From NCBI GenBank assembly GCA_963763775.1, contig CAVXPZ010000001.1, positions 1,184,001 to 1,248,000 of the forward strand: a DNA stretch of 64,000 nucleotides. The letters are read 5' to 3'. Below the pieces are notes generated by a model. It ran no database searches and was not told the DNA's origin. It saw only the letters and a list, made by a program, of their open reading frames with translations. Within the stretch, counting starts at the first letter, position 1. Each line of letters begins with the position of its first letter. This DNA is from an uncultured Chloroflexia bacterium (GTDB lineage: Bacteria > Chloroflexota > Limnocylindria > Limnocylindrales > CSP1-4). A program made the position numbers and the translations under genes. Below are positions 41,130 through 54,867 of the stretch, piece after piece.

Positions 41130-43659
41130 TCAGGCGATCCAGAGCCGTCCACGAGCGGTGCGCACGATCTCGGCGAGAACCGCCGGCGCCAGCGCGACCA
41201 CGGCGACGATCGCCCAATCGGACGCGTCGAGCGGCGTGGCCCGGAAGATCTCCTGGAGCGCCGGCACGTGCGGGATCAGGGCCTGGAAGGCGACCGTGGC
41301 GATCGCGACCGTCAGCAGGAACCCGTTCATCGAGAGGCGGTGCAAGGGGATCCGCAGGCTGCGGTTCGCGTACGCCCGGACCGCCTGCGCGCACACGAGG
41401 GACGTGTACGCCAGCCAGCGCGCGTGCTCGAACGTGCCGGGATGGAACTCCATGATCAGGAGCGCGGCCACGGCGCTGAACCCGCCCGCCACCGTGATCC
41501 GTGCGAGGATCCCGTCCGTCAGGAGCGGCAGCCCGTGCACGCGCGGGGGCCGTCGCATCAGGTCCGGCTCGGGATGCTCGCGCTCGAAGGCGACCGAGGT
41601 CGTCAGGTCGATGAAGAGCTCCATCCACAGGATCTGGATCGGCAGGAGCGGCTGACCGTAGCCGGCGGCGGTCGCGATGAAGATGAAGCCGAGCAGCGCG
41701 ACGTGGGTCGAGATCAGGAAGACGAGGCCCTTCTGCATGTTGTCGACGATGCGGCGGCCCTCGCGCAGGCCGTACATCAGCGTCGCGAACGAGTCGTCGC
41801 CGAGGACCAGGTCGGCCGCCTCCTTCGCGACCGCGGTCCCGGAGCCCATCGCCACGGCGACGTCGGCCCGACTCAGGGCCGGGGCGTCGTTGACCCCGTC
41901 ACCGGTCACCGCCACGGTCCGGCGGCCATCCCGCGCGATGCGGACGAGCCGCTCCTTCTGGTCCGGCGTGGATCGCGCCACGACTCGCATCCGCGGCAGC
42001 TCCTCGGCGAGGCGGGCGTCGTCCCACCCGGCGACCTCGTCGCCGACGACGATGTGGTTCGCATCCAGCCCTGCCTCGCGGGCGATCGCCGCCGCCGTCA
42101 ACGGATGGTCGCCCGTGACCACGATCGTCTGGATCCCCGCCTCGCCGGCTGTCTGGAGGGCCTCGCGGATCCCGTCACGGAGCGGGTCGGCGAACCCGAT
42201 GAGCGCGCGCATGACCCACGGATCGGCACCGTCGCGCGACGCGAGACCGACGAGCCGCTCGCCGCTCGAGGCGCTCGATGTCAGGAGGTCGTCCCATGCG
42301 GTCCTGGTCGAGGGCTCAGGTCCGACGAGGGCCAGCACGACCTCCGGAGCGCCGATCGCGAGCCCGACCTCCGTCCCGCCGCGACGGATGACCGCCGACG
42401 AGTAGGGCCGGCCATCCGCCACGGGCACCGCCGCGACGAGCTCGGCCGCGTCAAGGGTCGGATCGCCGCCGGCATCCGTGATCGCGCGGATGAGCGACCG
42501 CGTGAACGACCCGGGCGCCGACCCGTCGGTGGTCGCCCACGCATCGTCCTCGGCGCGCAAGGCGTCGAGCAGGACCGCGAGCCGGTCGCCTGGGTCGTCG
42601 AGGCGCCCGCCCAGGGTCCGGATCGAGGCGACGTCGAGCCGGTTCCGGGTGAGGGTCCCGGTCTTGTCGGTCACGATGAGATCGATCGCGCCGAGCGTCT
42701 CCTGGGCGTTGAGCCGGCGGACGAGGACGCCGCGCTTGAGCAGCCGGTACGCCCCGAGGCCGAGGATGACCGCGAGCAGGATCGGCGGCTCCTCCGGGAT
42801 CGCCGCGATCGCGGCGGAGACGCCCGCGAGCAGGTTCTGGCCGGCGGTCTGGCCGCGCAGGAACCCGATGCCGGTCACGAAGGCGATCAGGGCCATCGCG
42901 ACCACCAGCAGGATCTTGACGAGGCGATCGAGCTCGGCCTGCAGCGGCGACCGGCGGTGCCCGCGTGGACCGAGCCCGCCGGCGATCTTGCCGACCTCGG
43001 TGGCCTGCCCGATCGCGACCACCACGCCTTCGCCGCGTCCCCCGACGACGCTCGTGCCCGCGTAGGCGATGCGAGCGACGCTCGGCGAGCGGGGCGTCCT
43101 CCGGGTCGGGCTCGACGACGCCGGGCTCGGGGACCGACTCCCCGGTGAGGATGCTGCGGTCGACGACCAGCCGATCGACCCGGACGAGGCGCAGGTCCGC
43201 CGCGACGATGTCGCCGCCGCGGAGGAGGACGACGTCACCCGGCACGATGGTCGCCGCGGGCACGTCGTCGACGATGCCGCCCCGCCGGACGCGGGCCATC
43301 GGCGCGCTCGCCTCGCGCAACGCCTCGAGGGCGCGCTCCCCGCGATACCCCGTCACGACGTCCGCGATGACGATCGGCAGGAGACCCGCCAGGACGAGGA
43401 GCCCGTCGCGGACCTCGCCGAGCAGGATCGCGGCGCCGCCCGCGACGAGCAGGAGCAGCACGAACGGCTCCGTGGCGGCGTCCACGATCATCCGCAGCAC
43501 GGACTCGTGCTCGACCGGCTCAAGCTCGTTCCGGCCGCTCTCGGCAGCGCGGCGCTCGACCTCGTCGAGGGCGAGTCCGACTCGAGGGTCGACCCCGAGG
43601 AGCGTCTCGACCGCCTCGGCGGTGCTCGCGTACGGCGGGGCCTGCATGGGCCTCATCAT
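41130..43659 (-). CDS. Cation-transporting P-type ATPase, P2-like (frameshift near 43080)
   Basis: LTGES, AAIPEE, DKTGTLT phosphorylation site, TGDH, TGDGVNDAPAL, IQILWMEL. Confidence 0.9.
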
Positions 43660-47103: not shown

Positions 47104-49241
47104 CCGAGACCCTCCGCCCCGTCGAGGTCGAGCTCAAGTACCGCGTGCTCGACATGACCGCCGCCGAGCGGTATCTCGTCGCGCCGAGCATCGGCGCGTT
47201 CGTCGGGGCGTCCCAGGCGCGGTCGACCCAGATGGAGGACCGCTACGTCGACACGGCGGACCGGGCGTTCGAGCGTGCCGGCTTCGCGGTCCGACTCCGC
47301 TCGTCCGGCACCGGCGTCATCGTCTCGATCAAGTCGCTGAGCCGGCGCGAGGGCGCCGGCGGGTCCGTCGGGCGCGAGGAGATCGAGGGTCCGGCGATCC
47401 GCGCGGCGGGGCCGTCGGACTGGCCCGCCTCGGATGCCCGCTCGCTCGTGCTCGAGCTCGCCGGCGATGCGCCACTCGTCGAAGTCGTGACGATCCGGCA
47501 GCTCCGCCGCAAGCGCCAGCTCCGTGACGGGTCCACGCGCGTCGAGTTGAGCCTCGACGAGGTCGACGTCGTGGCGAGCAAGCGAGTGGTGGCGCGCTTC
47601 GTGGAGCTCGAAGCCGAGCTGACGAAGGGCAACGAGGCGCGTCTCAACGGGCTGGCGACCGTCTTCCGCGCCGACCCCGCGCTGAGCCCGGCGATGACGA
47701 GCAAGTTCGAAGCGGCGCTCGCGGCGATGCGGCCGGCGCCGACCAGCAAGTTCGAGGCGGCGCTCGCGGCGCTGGCCGACGTCACCCCGGATGACGACGT
47801 GGCGGTCGAGGCGACCGCGGTCGAGGCGCCGGCCGCGGTCGACACGCCGTCGATGCCCGAGGAGCTCGCCGCCGAGCCGGAGCCCGCCGCCATGGAGACC
47901 ACCGAGGCCATCGAGGCCGCCGAGACCAACGAGCAGCAGGCTCCCGAGGCCGCAGCCGACGAGGCGGTCGCCGTCGCCGAGCCGGTCGCAGAGGCCCCGC
48001 CGATCGACCCGATCGAGGCGATCGCGGCCGCCGAACCGCCGGTCATCGATCTCGACGTCCCGGAGCCCGAGCACGATCCCGAGGCCGCAGCCGACGCTGA
48101 GGCCGACGCGGCGGAACACGAAGCGGATCTCGCGGCGATCGCCGCTGCCCACGCCGCCGCGATCGACGCGGCCGAGCCCGTGGATGCGGTCGTCGACGAG
48201 GATGCCGAGGTCATCGAGGTCCACGCGACCTCCGAGGACGTGCCGACCACGTCGGACGTGGTCAGCGAGGCCGTCGAGGCGGCGGCGGCAGAGAGCGAGC
48301 CGCTCGCCATCAGCAAGACCGCGGGCGTCACCGCGGACGACCACATCGCGGAGGCGGGCCGCAAGGTCATGCGCTTCCACCTCGCGCGGATGCTGGCCCG
48401 CGAAGCCGGCACGCGCCTCGGCAAGGACCCCGAGGAGCTCCACGCGATGCGCGTCGCCACGCGACGGCAGCGCGCCGCCTGGCGGGTGTTCGGCGGGTCG
48501 TTCCGCACCGCGAGGACGAAGAAGTTCCGCAAGGGCCTGCGCGAGACCGCCGCTCGTCTCGGAGCCGTCCGCGACCTGGACGTGCTGCTCGAGGCCGCCG
48601 ACCATTACCGCGCCGACCTCCCGGTCACGGAGCAGCGCGCGCTGGAGCCACTCCTCGCCGACTGGCGCAACCATCGCGAGGGGGCCCGGGTCCTGCTCGC
48701 GCGCGAGCTCGATTCGGAGGGATACCGCCGCTGGGTCGACGACTATCGGGACTTCGTGCGAACCGAGGGCGCCGGCGTCCTGCCGGTGGGTCCGGTCGAA
48801 CCGCATCGGGTCCGCGACACCGCGCCGTCCGCGATCTGGACCGCCTATGAGCAGGTCCGCGGCTACGAGCCCGTCCTCCGCTGGGCCGATGTCGAGACGC
48901 TCCACGACCTGCGGATCGCCGGCAAGTGGCTGCGCTACACGCTCGAATTCGTGAAGGAGGCGCTCGGCCCGGATTCGGCGCCACTCATCGCGCGCGTCAC
49001 CGCGCTCCAGGACCACCTCGGGCTCATGCACGACGCCGACGTGTCGGCGTCGATGGCCAGGGCGTTCCTCGTCGAGCACGCCGGGCAGCTCTCCTCGCTC
49101 GAGAGCGCCGCGATCGGCCGCTACCTGGTCAATCGCGAGCGTGAGGTCGCCCGCCTGCGCCGGACGCTCAACACCACGTGGCGCGGCGTGGACAGCCTGG
49201 CGTTCCGTCGGGCCCTCGGTCGAGTGGTCGCCGGCCTCTAG
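47100..49241 (+). CDS. CYTH domain - long acidic linker - CHAD domain protein
   Basis: EVELKY, DRYVDT, VRLR, ELEAEL, SKF (CYTH); about 180 aa D/E/A/P-rich linker; ELHAMRVATRR, LGAVRDLDV, LHDLRIAGKWLRY, LQDHLG..HD (CHAD); ATGA overlap with ppk1. Confidence 0.9.
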   Translation: MTETLRPVEVELKYRVLDMTAAERYLVAPSIGAFVGASQARSTQMEDRYVDTADRAFERAGFAVRLRSSGTGVIVSIKSLSRREGAGGSVGREEIEGPAIRAAGPSDWPASDARSLVLELAGDAPLVEVVTIRQLRRKRQLRDGSTRVELSLDEVDVVASKRVVARFVELEAELTKGNEARLNGLATVFRADPALSPAMTSKFEAALAAMRPAPTSKFEAALAALADVTPDDDVAVEATAVEAPAAVDTPSMPEELAAEPEPAAMETTEAIEAAETNEQQAPEAAADEAVAVAEPVAEAPPIDPIEAIAAAEPPVIDLDVPEPEHDPEAAADAEADAAEHEADLAAIAAAHAAAIDAAEPVDAVVDEDAEVIEVHATSEDVPTTSDVVSEAVEAAAAESEPLAISKTAGVTADDHIAEAGRKVMRFHLARMLAREAGTRLGKDPEELHAMRVATRRQRAAWRVFGGSFRTARTKKFRKGLRETAARLGAVRDLDVLLEAADHYRADLPVTEQRALEPLLADWRNHREGARVLLARELDSEGYRRWVDDYRDFVRTEGAGVLPVGPVEPHRVRDTAPSAIWTAYEQVRGYEPVLRWADVETLHDLRIAGKWLRYTLEFVKEALGPDSAPLIARVTALQDHLGLMHDADVSASMARAFLVEHAGQLSSLESAAIGRYLVNREREVARLRRTLNTTWRGVDSLAFRRALGRVVAGL
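47697..47774 (+). repeat. In-frame 45-nt tandem duplication (TSKFEAALAAM / TSKFEAALAAL)
   Basis: Copies start at 47697 and 47742 and differ at synonymous sites (ACG/ACC, GAA/GAG). Confidence 0.8.
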
Positions 49242-49279
49242 CCGATCCGGACAGGCTCGGCGTCCCCGCGACCGCGGCC

Positions 49280-49516
49280 CGTTGCCCCACAGACAACGGA
49301 TTCAGGGTCTGGCTCTGGCACGGGGCCCGATCGCGACGCCCCCTCCCCGAAACGTTGCCTGCCAGACGACGGCAGCATGCCCAAGGTCGATCTCCCGCCC
49401 CGTTCGACCCCACTGAGCGCGTCGATGTTGCCCGTCAGGCAACGGTTGGCGCTGGCGAGCCCGGATCGTGGGGCGCGCCCCGGCTTCGGCCTGCGGACGT
49501 TGCTCACCAGGCAACG
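49280..49516. repeat. Array of four 19-bp palindromic repeats (YGTTGCY-NNNCA-GRCRACG) with unique 53-54-bp spacers
   Basis: Repeats at 49280-49298, 49353-49371, 49426-49444, 49498-49516; period 73, 73, 72. Confidence 0.8.
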
Positions 49517-49536
49517 CCGCCCGGGGGCCGCTCGGG

Positions 49537-50478
49537 TCAGGCTCGCCAGCCGTGGGCGAGCTCCGGGAGTCGATCGCGCCAGGCGATCCCGGCGTGGGCC
49601 GTCGCCAGGATGAGGCCCTCGCGGATCCCCGCCTCCGACACGCGAAGGGACTCGGCGCCGTACTGGCGCAGGATCGCATCGACGATGACGGCGCCGGCCG
49701 GCAGGATGCGGGCTCGCGCTTCGCGAAGGCCGTGGCGCTTCGCCGCGAGGTCCGCTGGCTCGGCGGCCAGGAGGGCCATCGCGCGAGCCGTCTTGTCTCG
49801 GGTCAAGGTCCCCTTCGATGCCCCGAAGCGGATCACCTTCAAGAGGTTCGAGACGGTCCCGCCGACCGCGACGATCTCCTGCGGCGAGGCGGGCGGCGCG
49901 GTCGCGACGACCCGTCGGGCATCCTCGAGCATCGCCATGAGTTCTTCGGCGGTGGGCGGGTCGTGCGTGACGTGGCGATCGGTCAGTCGGGCGGCGCCGA
50001 GCCGCAGCCCGGTCGCGCGCGGCGGTGAACCTGGCCCGATGAACGAGAACTCCGAGCTTCCGCCGCCGACGTCGATGATGAGCGTCTCGCGGGCGACCGG
50101 CCGACCGGCCATCACCCCGACCACCGTGAGCAGCGCCTCTTCCTCGTGTGTCAGGACGTGCAAGGCGAGTCCGGCGCGCCGCTCGACATCACGGACGATG
50201 GCGGGGCCGTCGCCCGCTCGGCGGATCGGCTCCGTGCCCGCGACCGTCACGGACGTGGCGCCGAGGCCACGCGCGACCTCCGCGTAGACCGCGAGGGCGT
50301 CGGCCAGGCCGAGGCGAGCCTCCGGACCCAGGAGGCCGTGCTCGGCGACGGCTTTACCGAGCCCGAGGAACACGGACTCGTCCGTGAGCGTGGTCAGCCG
50401 ATGGTTGGTGACCGTCGCGACGAGGAGATGGACCGAGTTCGAGCCGACGTCGATCGACGCACCGACGACGGGCGGCAT
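49537..50478 (-). CDS. ppx: Ppx/GppA family exopolyphosphatase (short form)
   Basis: ASIDVGSNSVHL, TEPIRRA, EEEA, IDVGGGSSE, GGT, GIREG. Confidence 0.88.
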   Translation of the reverse strand: MPPVVGASIDVGSNSVHLLVATVTNHRLTTLTDESVFLGLGKAVAEHGLLGPEARLGLADALAVYAEVARGLGATSVTVAGTEPIRRAGDGPAIVRDVERRAGLALHVLTHEEEALLTVVGVMAGRPVARETLIIDVGGGSSEFSFIGPGSPPRATGLRLGAARLTDRHVTHDPPTAEELMAMLEDARRVVATAPPASPQEIVAVGGTVSNLLKVIRFGASKGTLTRDKTARAMALLAAEPADLAAKRHGLREARARILPAGAVIVDAILRQYGAESLRVSEAGIREGLILATAHAGIAWRDRLPELAHGWRA

Positions 50479-50492
50479 CGAGCGGCGGGCGA

Positions 50493-51461
50493 TCAGGCGC
50501 CGGGCGCGGGCTTGGCCGGCGTCCGCGGCTTCGACGCCGCGGTCGCCGACGGCGTCTTGCGGGTGGCGGCCTTCGTGGCGCTGGCCGGTTTCGCGGCCTT
50601 GGTCGTCGACGTCTTGGTCGCCGCCGGCTTTGCGGTCGACGCCGGTTTCGCGGTCGACGCGTTCGCCGCGGGCGGCTTCTTCGCCGCAGCAGGCTTCTTC
50701 GCGGCCGGCTTCTTCGCGGCCGGGGCCTTGGTCGTGGCCGAGGTCGTCGTCGCGGCCGACGTCTTGGCGGCCGGCTTCTTCGCGGCGGCCGGCTTCTTCG
50801 CGGCGGCTGTCTTCTTTGGCGCACTCGCCTTCGCCCGAGGCTTTGCGATCGGCTCGGCCGCCGGCGCGTCCGCGTCGTCGACCGCGGGTGGGGACGTCTT
50901 GATCGGCGAAACGGCGACGACCGCTTTCGCGGCGGCGGACCCGCCGGCTTTCACGGCGCCGCCCGCGGCGCTCCTGGCCTGGCTGGCCGCGCCCGCCGCC
51001 GCCCCGGCCGCCGCACCGGCGGCATGACCGGCCGCACCGGCTGCGGCTCCAGCGGCATGACCCGCAGCGCCGGCGGCAGCACCAGCGGCACGGCCCGCAG
51101 CGCCCGCCGCGGCACCGGCGGCATGACCGGCGCGCGCGCCCGCCGAACCCGCCGCGCCGCCCACGGCCGACGTCGCGATCGACGCGATCCGCTGCGCGAG
51201 CGCCGCCACCTCGGCGGCGGCTTCACCAGCCTGTCGGCGGCGCTTCTCGACCTGCTTCCCGCCCTTGCCTGCCTGCGCCGCGGCGAGCTGCTTGAGTCGC
51301 TTGGCTTCCTTCTCGGTCGCGGCCATGAGCTGCTGCTCGAGCTTGCGGAGTTCCTTGGCCGCACTCCTGGAGAGCGGCACCACGACGTCGCGTGCGTCGC
51401 CCACGAACCCGGACGCGGCGCCCACCACGCCGTCGGTCGGGACCGCTCGCTTCTTCGCCAT
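50493..51461 (-). CDS. Lys/Ala-rich histone-H1-like protein with N-terminal coiled coil and 11-residue repeats
   Basis: GGAG SD; KELRKLEQQL..KRLKQL coiled coil; (G[H/R]AAGAAAGAA)x4; C-terminal AAKKP/AKPA repeats; stop lies 14 nt before ppx start. Confidence 0.72.
   Translation of the reverse strand: MAKKRAVPTDGVVGAASGFVGDARDVVVPLSRSAAKELRKLEQQLMAATEKEAKRLKQLAAAQAGKGGKQVEKRRRQAGEAAAEVAALAQRIASIATSAVGGAAGSAGARAGHAAGAAAGAAGRAAGAAAGAAGHAAGAAAGAAGHAAGAAAGAAAGAASQARSAAGGAVKAGGSAAAKAVVAVSPIKTSPPAVDDADAPAAEPIAKPRAKASAPKKTAAAKKPAAAKKPAAKTSAATTTSATTKAPAAKKPAAKKPAAAKKPPAANASTAKPASTAKPAATKTSTTKAAKPASATKAATRKTPSATAASKPRTPAKPAPGA
50996..51128 (-). repeat. 33-nt (11-aa) tandem repeat, four copies
   Basis: GCATGACC/GCACGGCC recurs on + strand at 51022, 51055, 51088, 51121. 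Confidence 0.8.
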
Positions 51462-53563: not shown

Positions 53564-53672
53564 CACGCCGCTCGACCGTGAGAGCGCTCAGACAGGGATG
53601 TAGAGACCAAGGCTGCCCCGAAAGCCAGCGACCGCCCGCGTAGCCGTGTGGCGACCAGGAGGAAACAGATCC

Positions 53673-54867
53673 GTGATCACCCCCACCTCGAAGCGCCTCG
53701 GCGCGCTCGCCTTCGCGGCGATGTTCGCGATCGGCGCGTGCTCCAGTTCCGGATCGTCGGCCGCACCGTCGACCGCCGCGTCCGCCGCAGCGCCGTCTGC
53801 CGCGGCCCCGTCAGCTGCAACCCCGTCGGAAGCGGCCCCATCCGCGTCCGCCGCGGCGATGACCCCGCCGGCCCCCGCCGCCGGCAGCGTCACGCTCCAG
53901 GGCGCCGGCGCCACCTTCCCGGCCCCGCTGTATGACAGCTGGTTCCAGACGTATACCGGAGCCAACCCGCAGGTCCAGTTCGACTACCAGGCCATCGGAT
54001 CCGGTGGCGGCATCAAGGCCATCACGGACGGTACCGTCGACTTCGGCGCCTCGGACGCTCCGATGAAGGACGAGGAGATCGCCGCCCTGCCGGCCGACTG
54101 CAAGGTCCTGCACGTCCCGACCGCCCTCGGCGCGGTCGTCGTGATCTACAACCTGCCCGGGCGTCACGGCGCTCAACCTCGACGCCGACAACGTCGCTGG
54201 GATCTATCTCGGCACGATCAAGAAGTGGAACGATCCCGCGATCGCCGCGAACAACGCGGGCGTGACGCTCCCCGACACCGACATCCTGGTCGCCCATCGC
54301 TCGGACGGCTCCGGGACCACCAACGCGTTCACCACCTACCTCGACACGGTCTCGCCCGACTGGCACACGAAGGTCGGCAAGGGCAAGGAAGTCAACTGGC
54401 CGGTCGGCGTCGGCGGCCAGGGCAATGACGGCGTCGCGACCGCGGTCAAGCAGACGCCCGGCACGGTCGGCTACGTCGAGCTCAACTACGCGACCACGAC
54501 GGGGCTCACCTCGGCGAACCTCAAGAACGCCGACGGCCAGTTCGTGCCCGGCTCGACGGACGGCGTGACCGCCGCCGCCGAGACCGCCGCCGCCAGCTTC
54601 CCGGCCGACTTCCGCCAGGCGCCGATCATCAACGGCGCCGGTCCGACGACCTATCCCATCGCCTCGTACACCTACCTCCTGGTCTGCACGGACCAGAAGG
54701 ACGCCACGAAGGGCCAGGACCTCGTGGCCTTCATGTACTGGGCCCTGACCGACGGTCAGGCCACGGAGAACACCCTCGGCTACGCCCCGCTGCCGGCCCC
54801 GGTCGCGCAGAAGGCGATCGAGGAACTCCACCAGATCACCACCGGCGGTGCGCCGATCTGGCCGTAA
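53673..54867 (+). CDS. pstS: Phosphate ABC transporter substrate-binding lipoprotein (frameshift near 54160)
   Basis: AGGAGG SD, lipobox IGAC, GAGATFPAPLY, GSGGG, DFGASD, HRSDGSGTT, YPIASYTY. Confidence 0.93.

Follow-up and report, generated by a model that had tools for sequence, protein, structure and literature searches.

Helically phased palindrome arrays in Limnocylindria and their predicted partnership with an HTH-nuclease-fold protein

To our knowledge, the origin and spread of short bacterial palindromic repeats are understood only for REP sequences and their RAYT enzymes. Palindromes are also read as double-stranded DNA by the HTH dimers of C proteins and phage repressors. In REPIN-RAYT systems, as presented in the sections of the published accounts available to us (bioRxiv 10.1101/2021.07.10.451892; PMC3733652), a single-copy chromosomal enzyme gene is flanked by its own short palindromes, and extragenic copies dispersed elsewhere combine conserved palindromes with variable spacers; the gene has not been found on plasmids or phages, and several families can coexist in one genome. 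Many repeat families lack a known enzyme, a statement made for CGTC repeats in the accessible part of PMC3733652. A second point of reference is the C-REase fusion, in which, according to excerpts of PMC3850674 and PMC3488213, an XRE-type HTH is fused N-terminally to a restriction-type fold. A third is provided by non-CRISPR interspaced arrays, which in the available portion of PMC10910872 have variable spacers, a PD-(D/E)XK nuclease-fold partner and no cas genes.

Here we describe an array of four palindromes in a 64,000-nucleotide stretch of DNA from an uncultured Limnocylindria bacterium (the window), together with its predicted partner, an XRE-type HTH fused to a PD-(D/E)XK-fold domain. 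The REPIN-RAYT traits listed above all recur here, and so do the domain order of the C-REase fusions and the three named features of the interspaced arrays. The differences, as far as the partly available sources go, are nevertheless substantial. The RAYT is an HUH/Y1 transposase; REP sequences carry a GTAG/CGTC tag, form inverted doublets and number in the hundreds, whereas the sites described here are 17-bp operator-like symmetric palindromes with a GATTC-like flanking motif instead of the tag, are set three to six at a time at whole helical turns, number in the tens, and have a specificity that tracks the HTH recognition helix. Compared with type II restriction-modification, an adjacent DNA methyltransferase was absent among the 57 neighbours scanned here. 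Where the accessible C-protein descriptions place two C-boxes 4 bp apart upstream of the gene, our sites lie 42-94 bp apart, upstream or downstream of the gene and also at many gene-less positions far away from it. The example described in the available part of PMC10910872 pairs an AddB-like nuclease/helicase with small RNAs, in contrast to the 250-aa HTH fusion and helical spacing found here, a difference drawn from that one example of six systems, of which four others may overlap. With regard to BoxC and G/C-rich intrastrand triplex motifs (PMC4666352, seen in part), a purine-run tail was not visible by eye in the window array. By analogy, we read the HTH-nuclease arrays as combining REPIN-RAYT-like logic with C-REase-like parts while lacking the defining features of both, and their predicted double-strand chemistry would be unrelated to that of RAYT. 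A description of this partnership was not found in the open-access literature that was searched.

The array occupies a non-coding, lineage-specific gap of 295 bp (49242..49536) that is short in most same-genus orthologues. On its left lies a host CYTH-CHAD gene (47106..49241, + strand; Pfam CHAD 8e-51, CYTH 2e-15) and on its right the convergent host gene ppx/gppA (49537..50478, - strand; Pfam Ppx-GppA 2e-38), both outside the element. A preliminary description had placed four palindromes at 49280, 49353, 49426 and 49498, with start-to-start distances of 73, 73 and 72 bp; all four are present at those positions, and the array is confirmed as real. The sites span 49280..49298 (the first, with a 17-bp core at 49281-49297), 49353..49371, 49426..49444 (interior) and 49498..49516 (the last), and are separated by unique spacers of 54, 54 and 53 bp (49299..49352, 49372..49425 and 49445..49497) that are mutually unlike, as had been claimed (best local score 19 against a cut-off of 30). 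The proposed 7-bp arms around a 5-nt loop ending in CA needed revision: the sites are palindromes, but their arms depart from the consensus (by 1, 2, 1 and 1 mismatches), and a 17-bp core of 7+3+7, GTTGCCY-nnn-RGGCAAC, with one further C/G pair outside it, describes the unit better, so that the loop's constant final A counts as arm. A GATTC motif (49299..49303, + strand) lies on the inner side of the first site, and is not clear at the fourth. An 8-bp repeat flanks the array, at 49252 and 49538, and is too short to be called a target-site duplication, of which no clear case was seen here. A 168-bp contig from a soil metagenome, whose run could be related to the source sample, spans 49332-49499 with one difference and speaks against an assembly artefact.

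Chance and coding accounts of the array were both considered. With a loose detector that accepts any palindrome at a period of 48-96 bp, a four-unit chain appeared in 1 of 1000 dinucleotide shuffles of the gap, and an order-5 Markov simulation of 6.6 Mb (4 x 1.65 Mb) produced three three-unit chains and no four-unit chain; the shuffle check suggested with the preliminary description thus came out in favour of the array. The coding repeat raised there as an alternative is rejected, as the gap-crossing ORFs lack the host codon signature, with flat codon GC (0.69/0.67/0.79, 0.72/0.72/0.77 and 0.67/0.78/0.71) against 0.76/0.54/0.88 for ppx.

A constant period and unique spacers also invite a CRISPR- or TIGR-like reading, in which the array is transcribed and processed into guide-like or structured RNAs of ~73 nt. 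The linkage of a nuclease-fold gene to the same repeat fits this reading, as does the existence of non-CRISPR interspaced arrays with nucleases (in the part of PMC10910872 at hand). However, we consider it very improbable. Neither strand of the gap folds better than shuffles (z-scores -0.65 and -0.15), and the array has no Rfam match at the gathering score, so a structured RNA is rejected; no sigma-70 promoter or terminator match was found at the array, and cas1 was not found in the 87%-complete genome. Spacer searches, which had been proposed as a check, returned matches at background level for phages (best E 0.02, 85% over 41 nt), plasmids and the host genome, those to phages and plasmids being weak. 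The spacers were likewise rejected as captured DNA: 4 of 18 array spacers match the host over at least 18 nt, the corresponding share of genomic 55-mers being 23% for random and 32% for GC-rich ones, and two of the three window spacers have such an 18-nt match in the host genome. Two further results given below, namely that the periods step by 10.4 bp, a property of duplex DNA, and that the repeat sequence follows a DNA-reading helix, also argue against guide RNAs.

Scanning the rest of the assembly (G000; 3.3 Mb, 71% GC, 87% complete) for the palindrome, as had been recommended, revealed three clusters besides that in the window on contig C1. One, at C3:262884, is gene-less, has spacings of 73, 72 and 72 bp and lies between two other convergent genes; another, at C3:364486, is a pair of window-family palindromes; and the third, at C4:83716, starts 37 bp past the stop codon of a gene (C4:82909-83679) for a 256-aa protein with an XRE-type HTH and a PD-(D/E)XK fold, the only full-length member of its clade, clade A, in the genome. 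This last cluster is decayed, with spacings of 73, 102 and 71 bp. The remark that nothing near the window array explains it was therefore correct, the partner gene being on another contig. Among the genes that had been suggested as ones to look for beside such arrays, PF04480 (DUF559/Vsr-like) was found neither in the genome nor in any of 108 aligned members of the protein family, and PF01797, the Y1/HUH transposase, was not found in the 87%-complete genome. A REP/BIME-type cassette, one of the original options, accordingly survives as an analogy only. A relaxed de novo array finder returned nine chains in the same genome, several of them within coding DNA; that at C1:1366164-1366360 is a 27-bp coding repeat (GKGGNLxFS units) of a large secreted-looking protein and was discarded as an array. 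Separately, five genomes of the genus share a solitary 17-bp near-palindrome of identical sequence, with one copy in each (G000:C1:383165, G105:C1:167071, G169:C4:717889, G151:C12:47140 and G166:C1:1211251); in all probability it has nothing to do with the arrays and is a host site or piece of coding sequence under conservation.

The window family has eight sites in G000, compared with one to five solitary sites in five relatives, and the exact window pattern is rare more widely, with one or two solitary matches in each of 15 of 100 family genomes. In the comparison of the orthologous locus that had been called for, 25 of the 29 genomes from the same genus have a gap of no more than 66 bp between the CHAD gene and ppx (lengths for loci L041 and L046 were read by eye), and in the closest relative, G166, the site is empty and the clade-A gene is absent among the matches. 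Two of the four long gaps (2 of the 29 relatives; L047 and L053) carry phased sites of a different family, spaced 61/61 and 61/83; scored against known half-sites, the other two, L051 and L052, gave no phased sites. Our chain detector, which applies an A/T filter, had missed the arrays in these long gaps, and the known half-sites recovered them. At the second family-A site, none of the 29 relatives has a chain of three or more. On comparative grounds, the window site is recent and reusable. These data also bear on the idea that the sites are operators of a phosphate/polyphosphate regulator controlling ppk1-CHAD and ppx. The gap does lie in a polyP/pst cluster, flanked by ppk1-CHAD and ppx, with an OmpR-type regulator nearby. 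Yet it separates the 3' ends of two genes, most relatives lack it, the same palindrome stands beside unrelated genes, and two relatives hold another family in this gap; we regard the operator reading as largely refuted by non-conservation and barely credible.

The clade-A protein was recognised by Pfam solely through its XRE-type HTH (residues 29-85). An AlphaFold model built with 108 sequences (pLDDT 91.9) places in the N-terminal domain a close match to XRE and C proteins, best exemplified by C.AhdI (Z 12.5, rmsd 0.9, 64 aligned) and extending to ClgR, C.BclI and C.Esp1396I. Residues 97-255 match most closely XisH, the fdxN element excision factor (PDB 2okf; Z 9.1, rmsd 3.3, 120 aligned), and NucS/EndoMS (2vld; Z 9.0, rmsd 2.9, 102 aligned), at identities of 13-19%, where a shared fold shows no shared function; Foldseek additionally returned McrC, EndoMS and SduA at E 1e-3 to 4e-3. 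XisH, NucS, McrC, EndoMS and SduA share the PD-(D/E)XK fold. Residues E121, D133, E146, S149, Q156 and K164 are invariant in all 108 members. The acidic metal-binding residues E, D and E are thus present (E121, D133 and E146), their catalytic role being assigned by motif position, whereas position 148, the canonical lysine spot two residues after E146, is H, Q or S in clade A; other HTH-nuclease clades in the genome retain ExK. The invariant K164 in the next helix could substitute for the missing lysine. Since that lysine is absent, nuclease activity in clade A is putative, and the clade may be catalytically altered or dead.

Of 151 genomes of the family, 101 have homologues at E<=1e-10, although some of these are weaker matches that belong to other clades; at E<=1e-25, among 251 genomes of the phylum, the gene family was found in just two families of the same class. 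It was not found in phage records or viral contigs, nor on plasmids beyond the HTH part. The genes sit amid housekeeping genes, their 123 neighbours falling into 62 clusters, of which the largest is an Lhr-type helicase (18 of 123); the clade-A genes of G000 and G151 both adjoin such a helicase, and their helices and palindromes differ. Among 57 of the 123 neighbour ORFs, picked to cover the clusters, we found no DNA methyltransferase, transposase or integrase and saw no serine recombinase, the single methyltransferase-named match being an FtsJ-like enzyme. As a separate observation, the word GATAAG lies shortly upstream of the HTH-nuclease start at 7 of 14 loci inspected by eye, across clades (flanks of L077-L079, L080, L083, L085 and L088), and is possibly a promoter element.

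We pooled genome and metagenome loci into 110 distinct HTH-nuclease loci. Searching 400 bp to each side of the gene yielded chains of at least three palindromes in 27 of 97 flanks upstream and in 14 of 87 downstream, compared with 0/97 and 0/87 in shuffles and 0/63 and 0/64 in distant flanks. With the spacing constraint lifted, a 7+3+7 family is present at 58/110 loci against 1/110 shuffled and 8/50 distant flanks; the remaining 52 of 110, some with short or coding flanks, have no palindrome family. Spacings of at least 30 bp (n=170) show a periodicity of R=0.75 at 10.4 bp, whose nominal p overstates the significance because the loci are related, and peak at 51-52, 61-63, 71-74, 82-84 and 92-94 bp, which are whole helical turns. 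Within the spacers, A/T peaks recur at intervals of roughly 10 bp, near positions 2-4, 13, 23 and 34. Of the 38 terminal sites in 19 arrays taken from three relatives, 33 have a GATTC-like motif on their inner side and 2 have it on their outer side. Many of the 20 array regions in these relatives begin just behind a gene's 3' end, and arrays stand on both sides of the HTH-nuclease gene at many loci, including L004, L078, L152 and L172. From comparison across loci, the helical spacing, A/T peaks and terminal motif are features of bound, bent duplex DNA, not of guide RNAs. The early suggestion of phased protein-binding sites, with 73 bp equal to seven helical turns, is strongly supported by these whole-turn spacings and by a palindrome that tracks the helix.

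This tracking was assessed in 51 loci, 7 of the 58 having been dropped as unphased or lacking the HTH. The highest summed residue-base associations belong to the recognition helix and its immediate surroundings, at positions 54, 60 and 50 (an artefact column, G93, was set aside); the nuclease-domain columns 167, 233 and 174 also score high, owing to shared ancestry. Glutamate at residue 60 goes with CG at half-site bases 4-5 in 8/8 loci, glutamine with G at base 5 in 10/10, leucine or methionine with GA at bases 4-5 in 6/6, and arginine with G at base 4 in 17/20. The G000 clade-A protein has R60, and its half-site reads G-C at bases 4-5, a match. The residue-60 code recurs across a 51-leaf tree for which only the nuclease domain was used, and on which no fewer than 19 changes of that residue are counted. 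E/D/Q versus G at base 5 goes in the same direction in 5/5 independent pairs (p=0.06, the floor for five pairs), and two other residue-base contrasts are weaker and never in the wrong direction; with 5-6 pairs per test, p ranges over 0.06-0.125 and values below 0.05 are out of reach, and the traits were picked after looking. Two of two held-out loci with phased sites fit the residue-60 code. Members with an HRS or HRT helix mostly pair with GACT-N3-AGTC, which is the C-box consensus of C proteins, some with an HRTY helix (PMC3488213, in the part available). Taken together, the comparisons indicate that the palindrome sequence tracks the partner's recognition helix.

Specificity was also apparent between genomes. 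Half-sites taken from beside each genome's HTH-nuclease gene were counted in that genome and in four others, giving 49 versus 2-3, 23 versus 0-5, 9 versus 0-2 and 26 versus 4-18; in a fifth test, the CGCGACT family of the gap in G151 was not enriched genome-wide (7 versus a control of 12). Across the 20 array regions of the three relatives, the cognate gene was the sole profile match, and the other regions, like the window, hold no gene remnant. In G151, at least eight fresh arrays of one family were accompanied by one cognate gene. Among 67 spacers, pairs reaching a score of 30 numbered 2 of 2133 between arrays versus 6 of 78 within arrays. As spacers are not common to arrays, recent whole-array copy-and-paste is unsupported, and the arrays appear to grow by local duplication rather than being recent copies of each other. 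REPIN spacers are likewise described as highly variable in the accessible part of bioRxiv 10.1101/2021.07.10.451892, so that unshared spacers are compatible with dispersal here too, and also leave room for selection by the host, discussed below.

A gene-less array could be the scar of an array-gene-array cassette from which the gene was lost by recombination between its flanking arrays. Many genes are flanked by arrays on both sides, as at the four loci named above, the 62 clusters among 123 neighbours imply that the gene reaches many sites over time, and a second convergent gap in G000 holds a similar gene-less array. Against such a scar are the failure of the window array and 19 further array regions to show any remnant of a gene, the single cognate gene found for the at least eight same-family arrays of G151, and the inward-facing terminal motif that gene-less arrays bear at both ends; we think it quite unlikely. 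The reading that we prefer is that the window array is very probably a satellite binding platform for an HTH-nuclease. Judging from sequence comparison, it is a gene-less, lineage-specific copy of the palindrome family found behind the clade-A gene of G000; it probably serves as an in-phase platform for the clade-A protein and was likely seeded by that protein in trans, an explanation that we hold as a whole with moderate confidence.

A mechanism can be proposed along the following lines. An HTH dimer would read each palindrome as double-stranded DNA, and the phasing would bring all dimers to the same side of the helix, giving a complex in which the DNA is bent or wrapped; we infer these two steps together with considerable confidence. 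The nuclease-fold domains may then cleave one or both strands at the array, with the terminal GATTC as a possible point of attack, and repair by the host may copy or rebuild arrays in gaps behind the 3' ends of genes, a pair of steps that we favour by a small measure, as we do the putative role of the HTH-nuclease in seeding such arrays. Arrays would subsequently grow by unit duplication, with drifting spacers and with sites and spacing kept, and a change in the recognition helix would turn the genome's array population over to a new sequence. All of the evidence is comparative; binding is the strongly inferred part, and cutting and movement are hypothetical steps. Only tentatively, and at somewhat less than an even chance, do we suggest an undescribed self-propagating DNA class in Limnocylindria, in which an HTH-nuclease assembles on its own phased operators, cuts a terminal motif and seeds arrays in trans, and in which a one-residue change of the helix re-specifies the repeats.

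The main competing account, which we judge unlikely, sees the arrays as docking sites selected by the host, arising through ordinary mutation and duplication under selection, with the protein as a domesticated DNA-wrapping or regulatory factor or as a toxic nuclease held in check by the arrays; in one variant the DNA would serve as antidote or titration sink, possibly releasing the nuclease upon chromosome degradation. Near-perfect sites and spacing between unrelated spacers fit purifying selection on each array, and the residence of the gene amid housekeeping genes, often beside the Lhr-type helicase, its apparent absence from phages and viral contigs and, at full length, from plasmids, and the unconserved canonical lysine position are all in keeping with a host function. 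However, array positions are not conserved, 25 of 29 relatives being empty at the window site and 29 of 29 lacking an array of at least three sites at the second; residue 60 changes 19 times on the 51-leaf tree, and it is difficult to imagine many multi-site arrays being rebuilt through point mutations after every such switch; the closest relative lacks both the clade-A gene and arrays; and PADLOC matched the HTH part of the protein only.

The present analysis contributes a residue-to-base code, a matrix of specificity across genomes, and instances of empty and of re-occupied sites. The preferred reading, that of an HTH-nuclease acting on its own phased palindromes, names a candidate enzyme of unrelated fold for the spread of palindromic repeats and makes the question directly testable with a protein of 250 residues, a site of 17 bp, a rule for the spacing and a predicted correspondence between residue and base. 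The ~50 HTH-operator pairs, with their different specificities, form a natural library useful for studying the evolution of DNA recognition. Gene-less palindrome arrays of 62, 72 and 83 bp in this class would be explained as one system, which advises caution against reading them as CRISPR-like. If true, the proposed self-propagating class would match REPIN-RAYT on the side of double-strand chemistry and restriction folds, and its protein-DNA code would be readable.

Several further arrays and genes were recorded along the way. A distant homologue from a different family of the class, locus L250 (G209:C7), has phased sites at 70/72/61, so the array design extends beyond the present family. In G000, a second palindrome family, CAGTCAC-N3-GTGACTG, with a period of 62-72, lies upstream of a distant HTH-nuclease gene (C3:340718-341692) that has a canonical ExK motif and is read with frameshifts in the assembly; the same family is gene-less in at least four places (C2:129225-129350, C3:215587, C4:246682, C4:323944-324088 and C4:324258). 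A third HTH-nuclease clade (L071, C4:138660-139600; C3:752500-752650) is accompanied by a GKTMCT-type palindrome at distances of ~104 bp, and its repeat set also includes a central 8+4+8 palindrome and the word CTGAGCGTG, the latter found at L084 and L087 as well. A fourth HTH-nuclease gene (C1:1267131-1267905; L074/L076) is read with frameshifts and an internal duplication, with no clear array adjoining it, and its G166 homologue lies upstream of the same neighbour gene.

Sequencing errors may account for the frameshifts, which are common in this assembly. Two window genes are split over two frames, at 41130-43659 (- strand) and 53646-54867 (+ strand), and we take them to be a P-type ATPase-like and a pstS-like gene, respectively. 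Upstream of ppx, at 50493-51437 (- strand), lies an ORF that has no Pfam match, is rich in Ala, Lys and Pro, contains PAAKK-type repeats and presumably resembles histone-like proteins. Lastly, the CYTH-CHAD protein carries an acidic Ala/Glu/Pro-rich linker of ~240 aa between its two domains (window 47600-48350, + strand).
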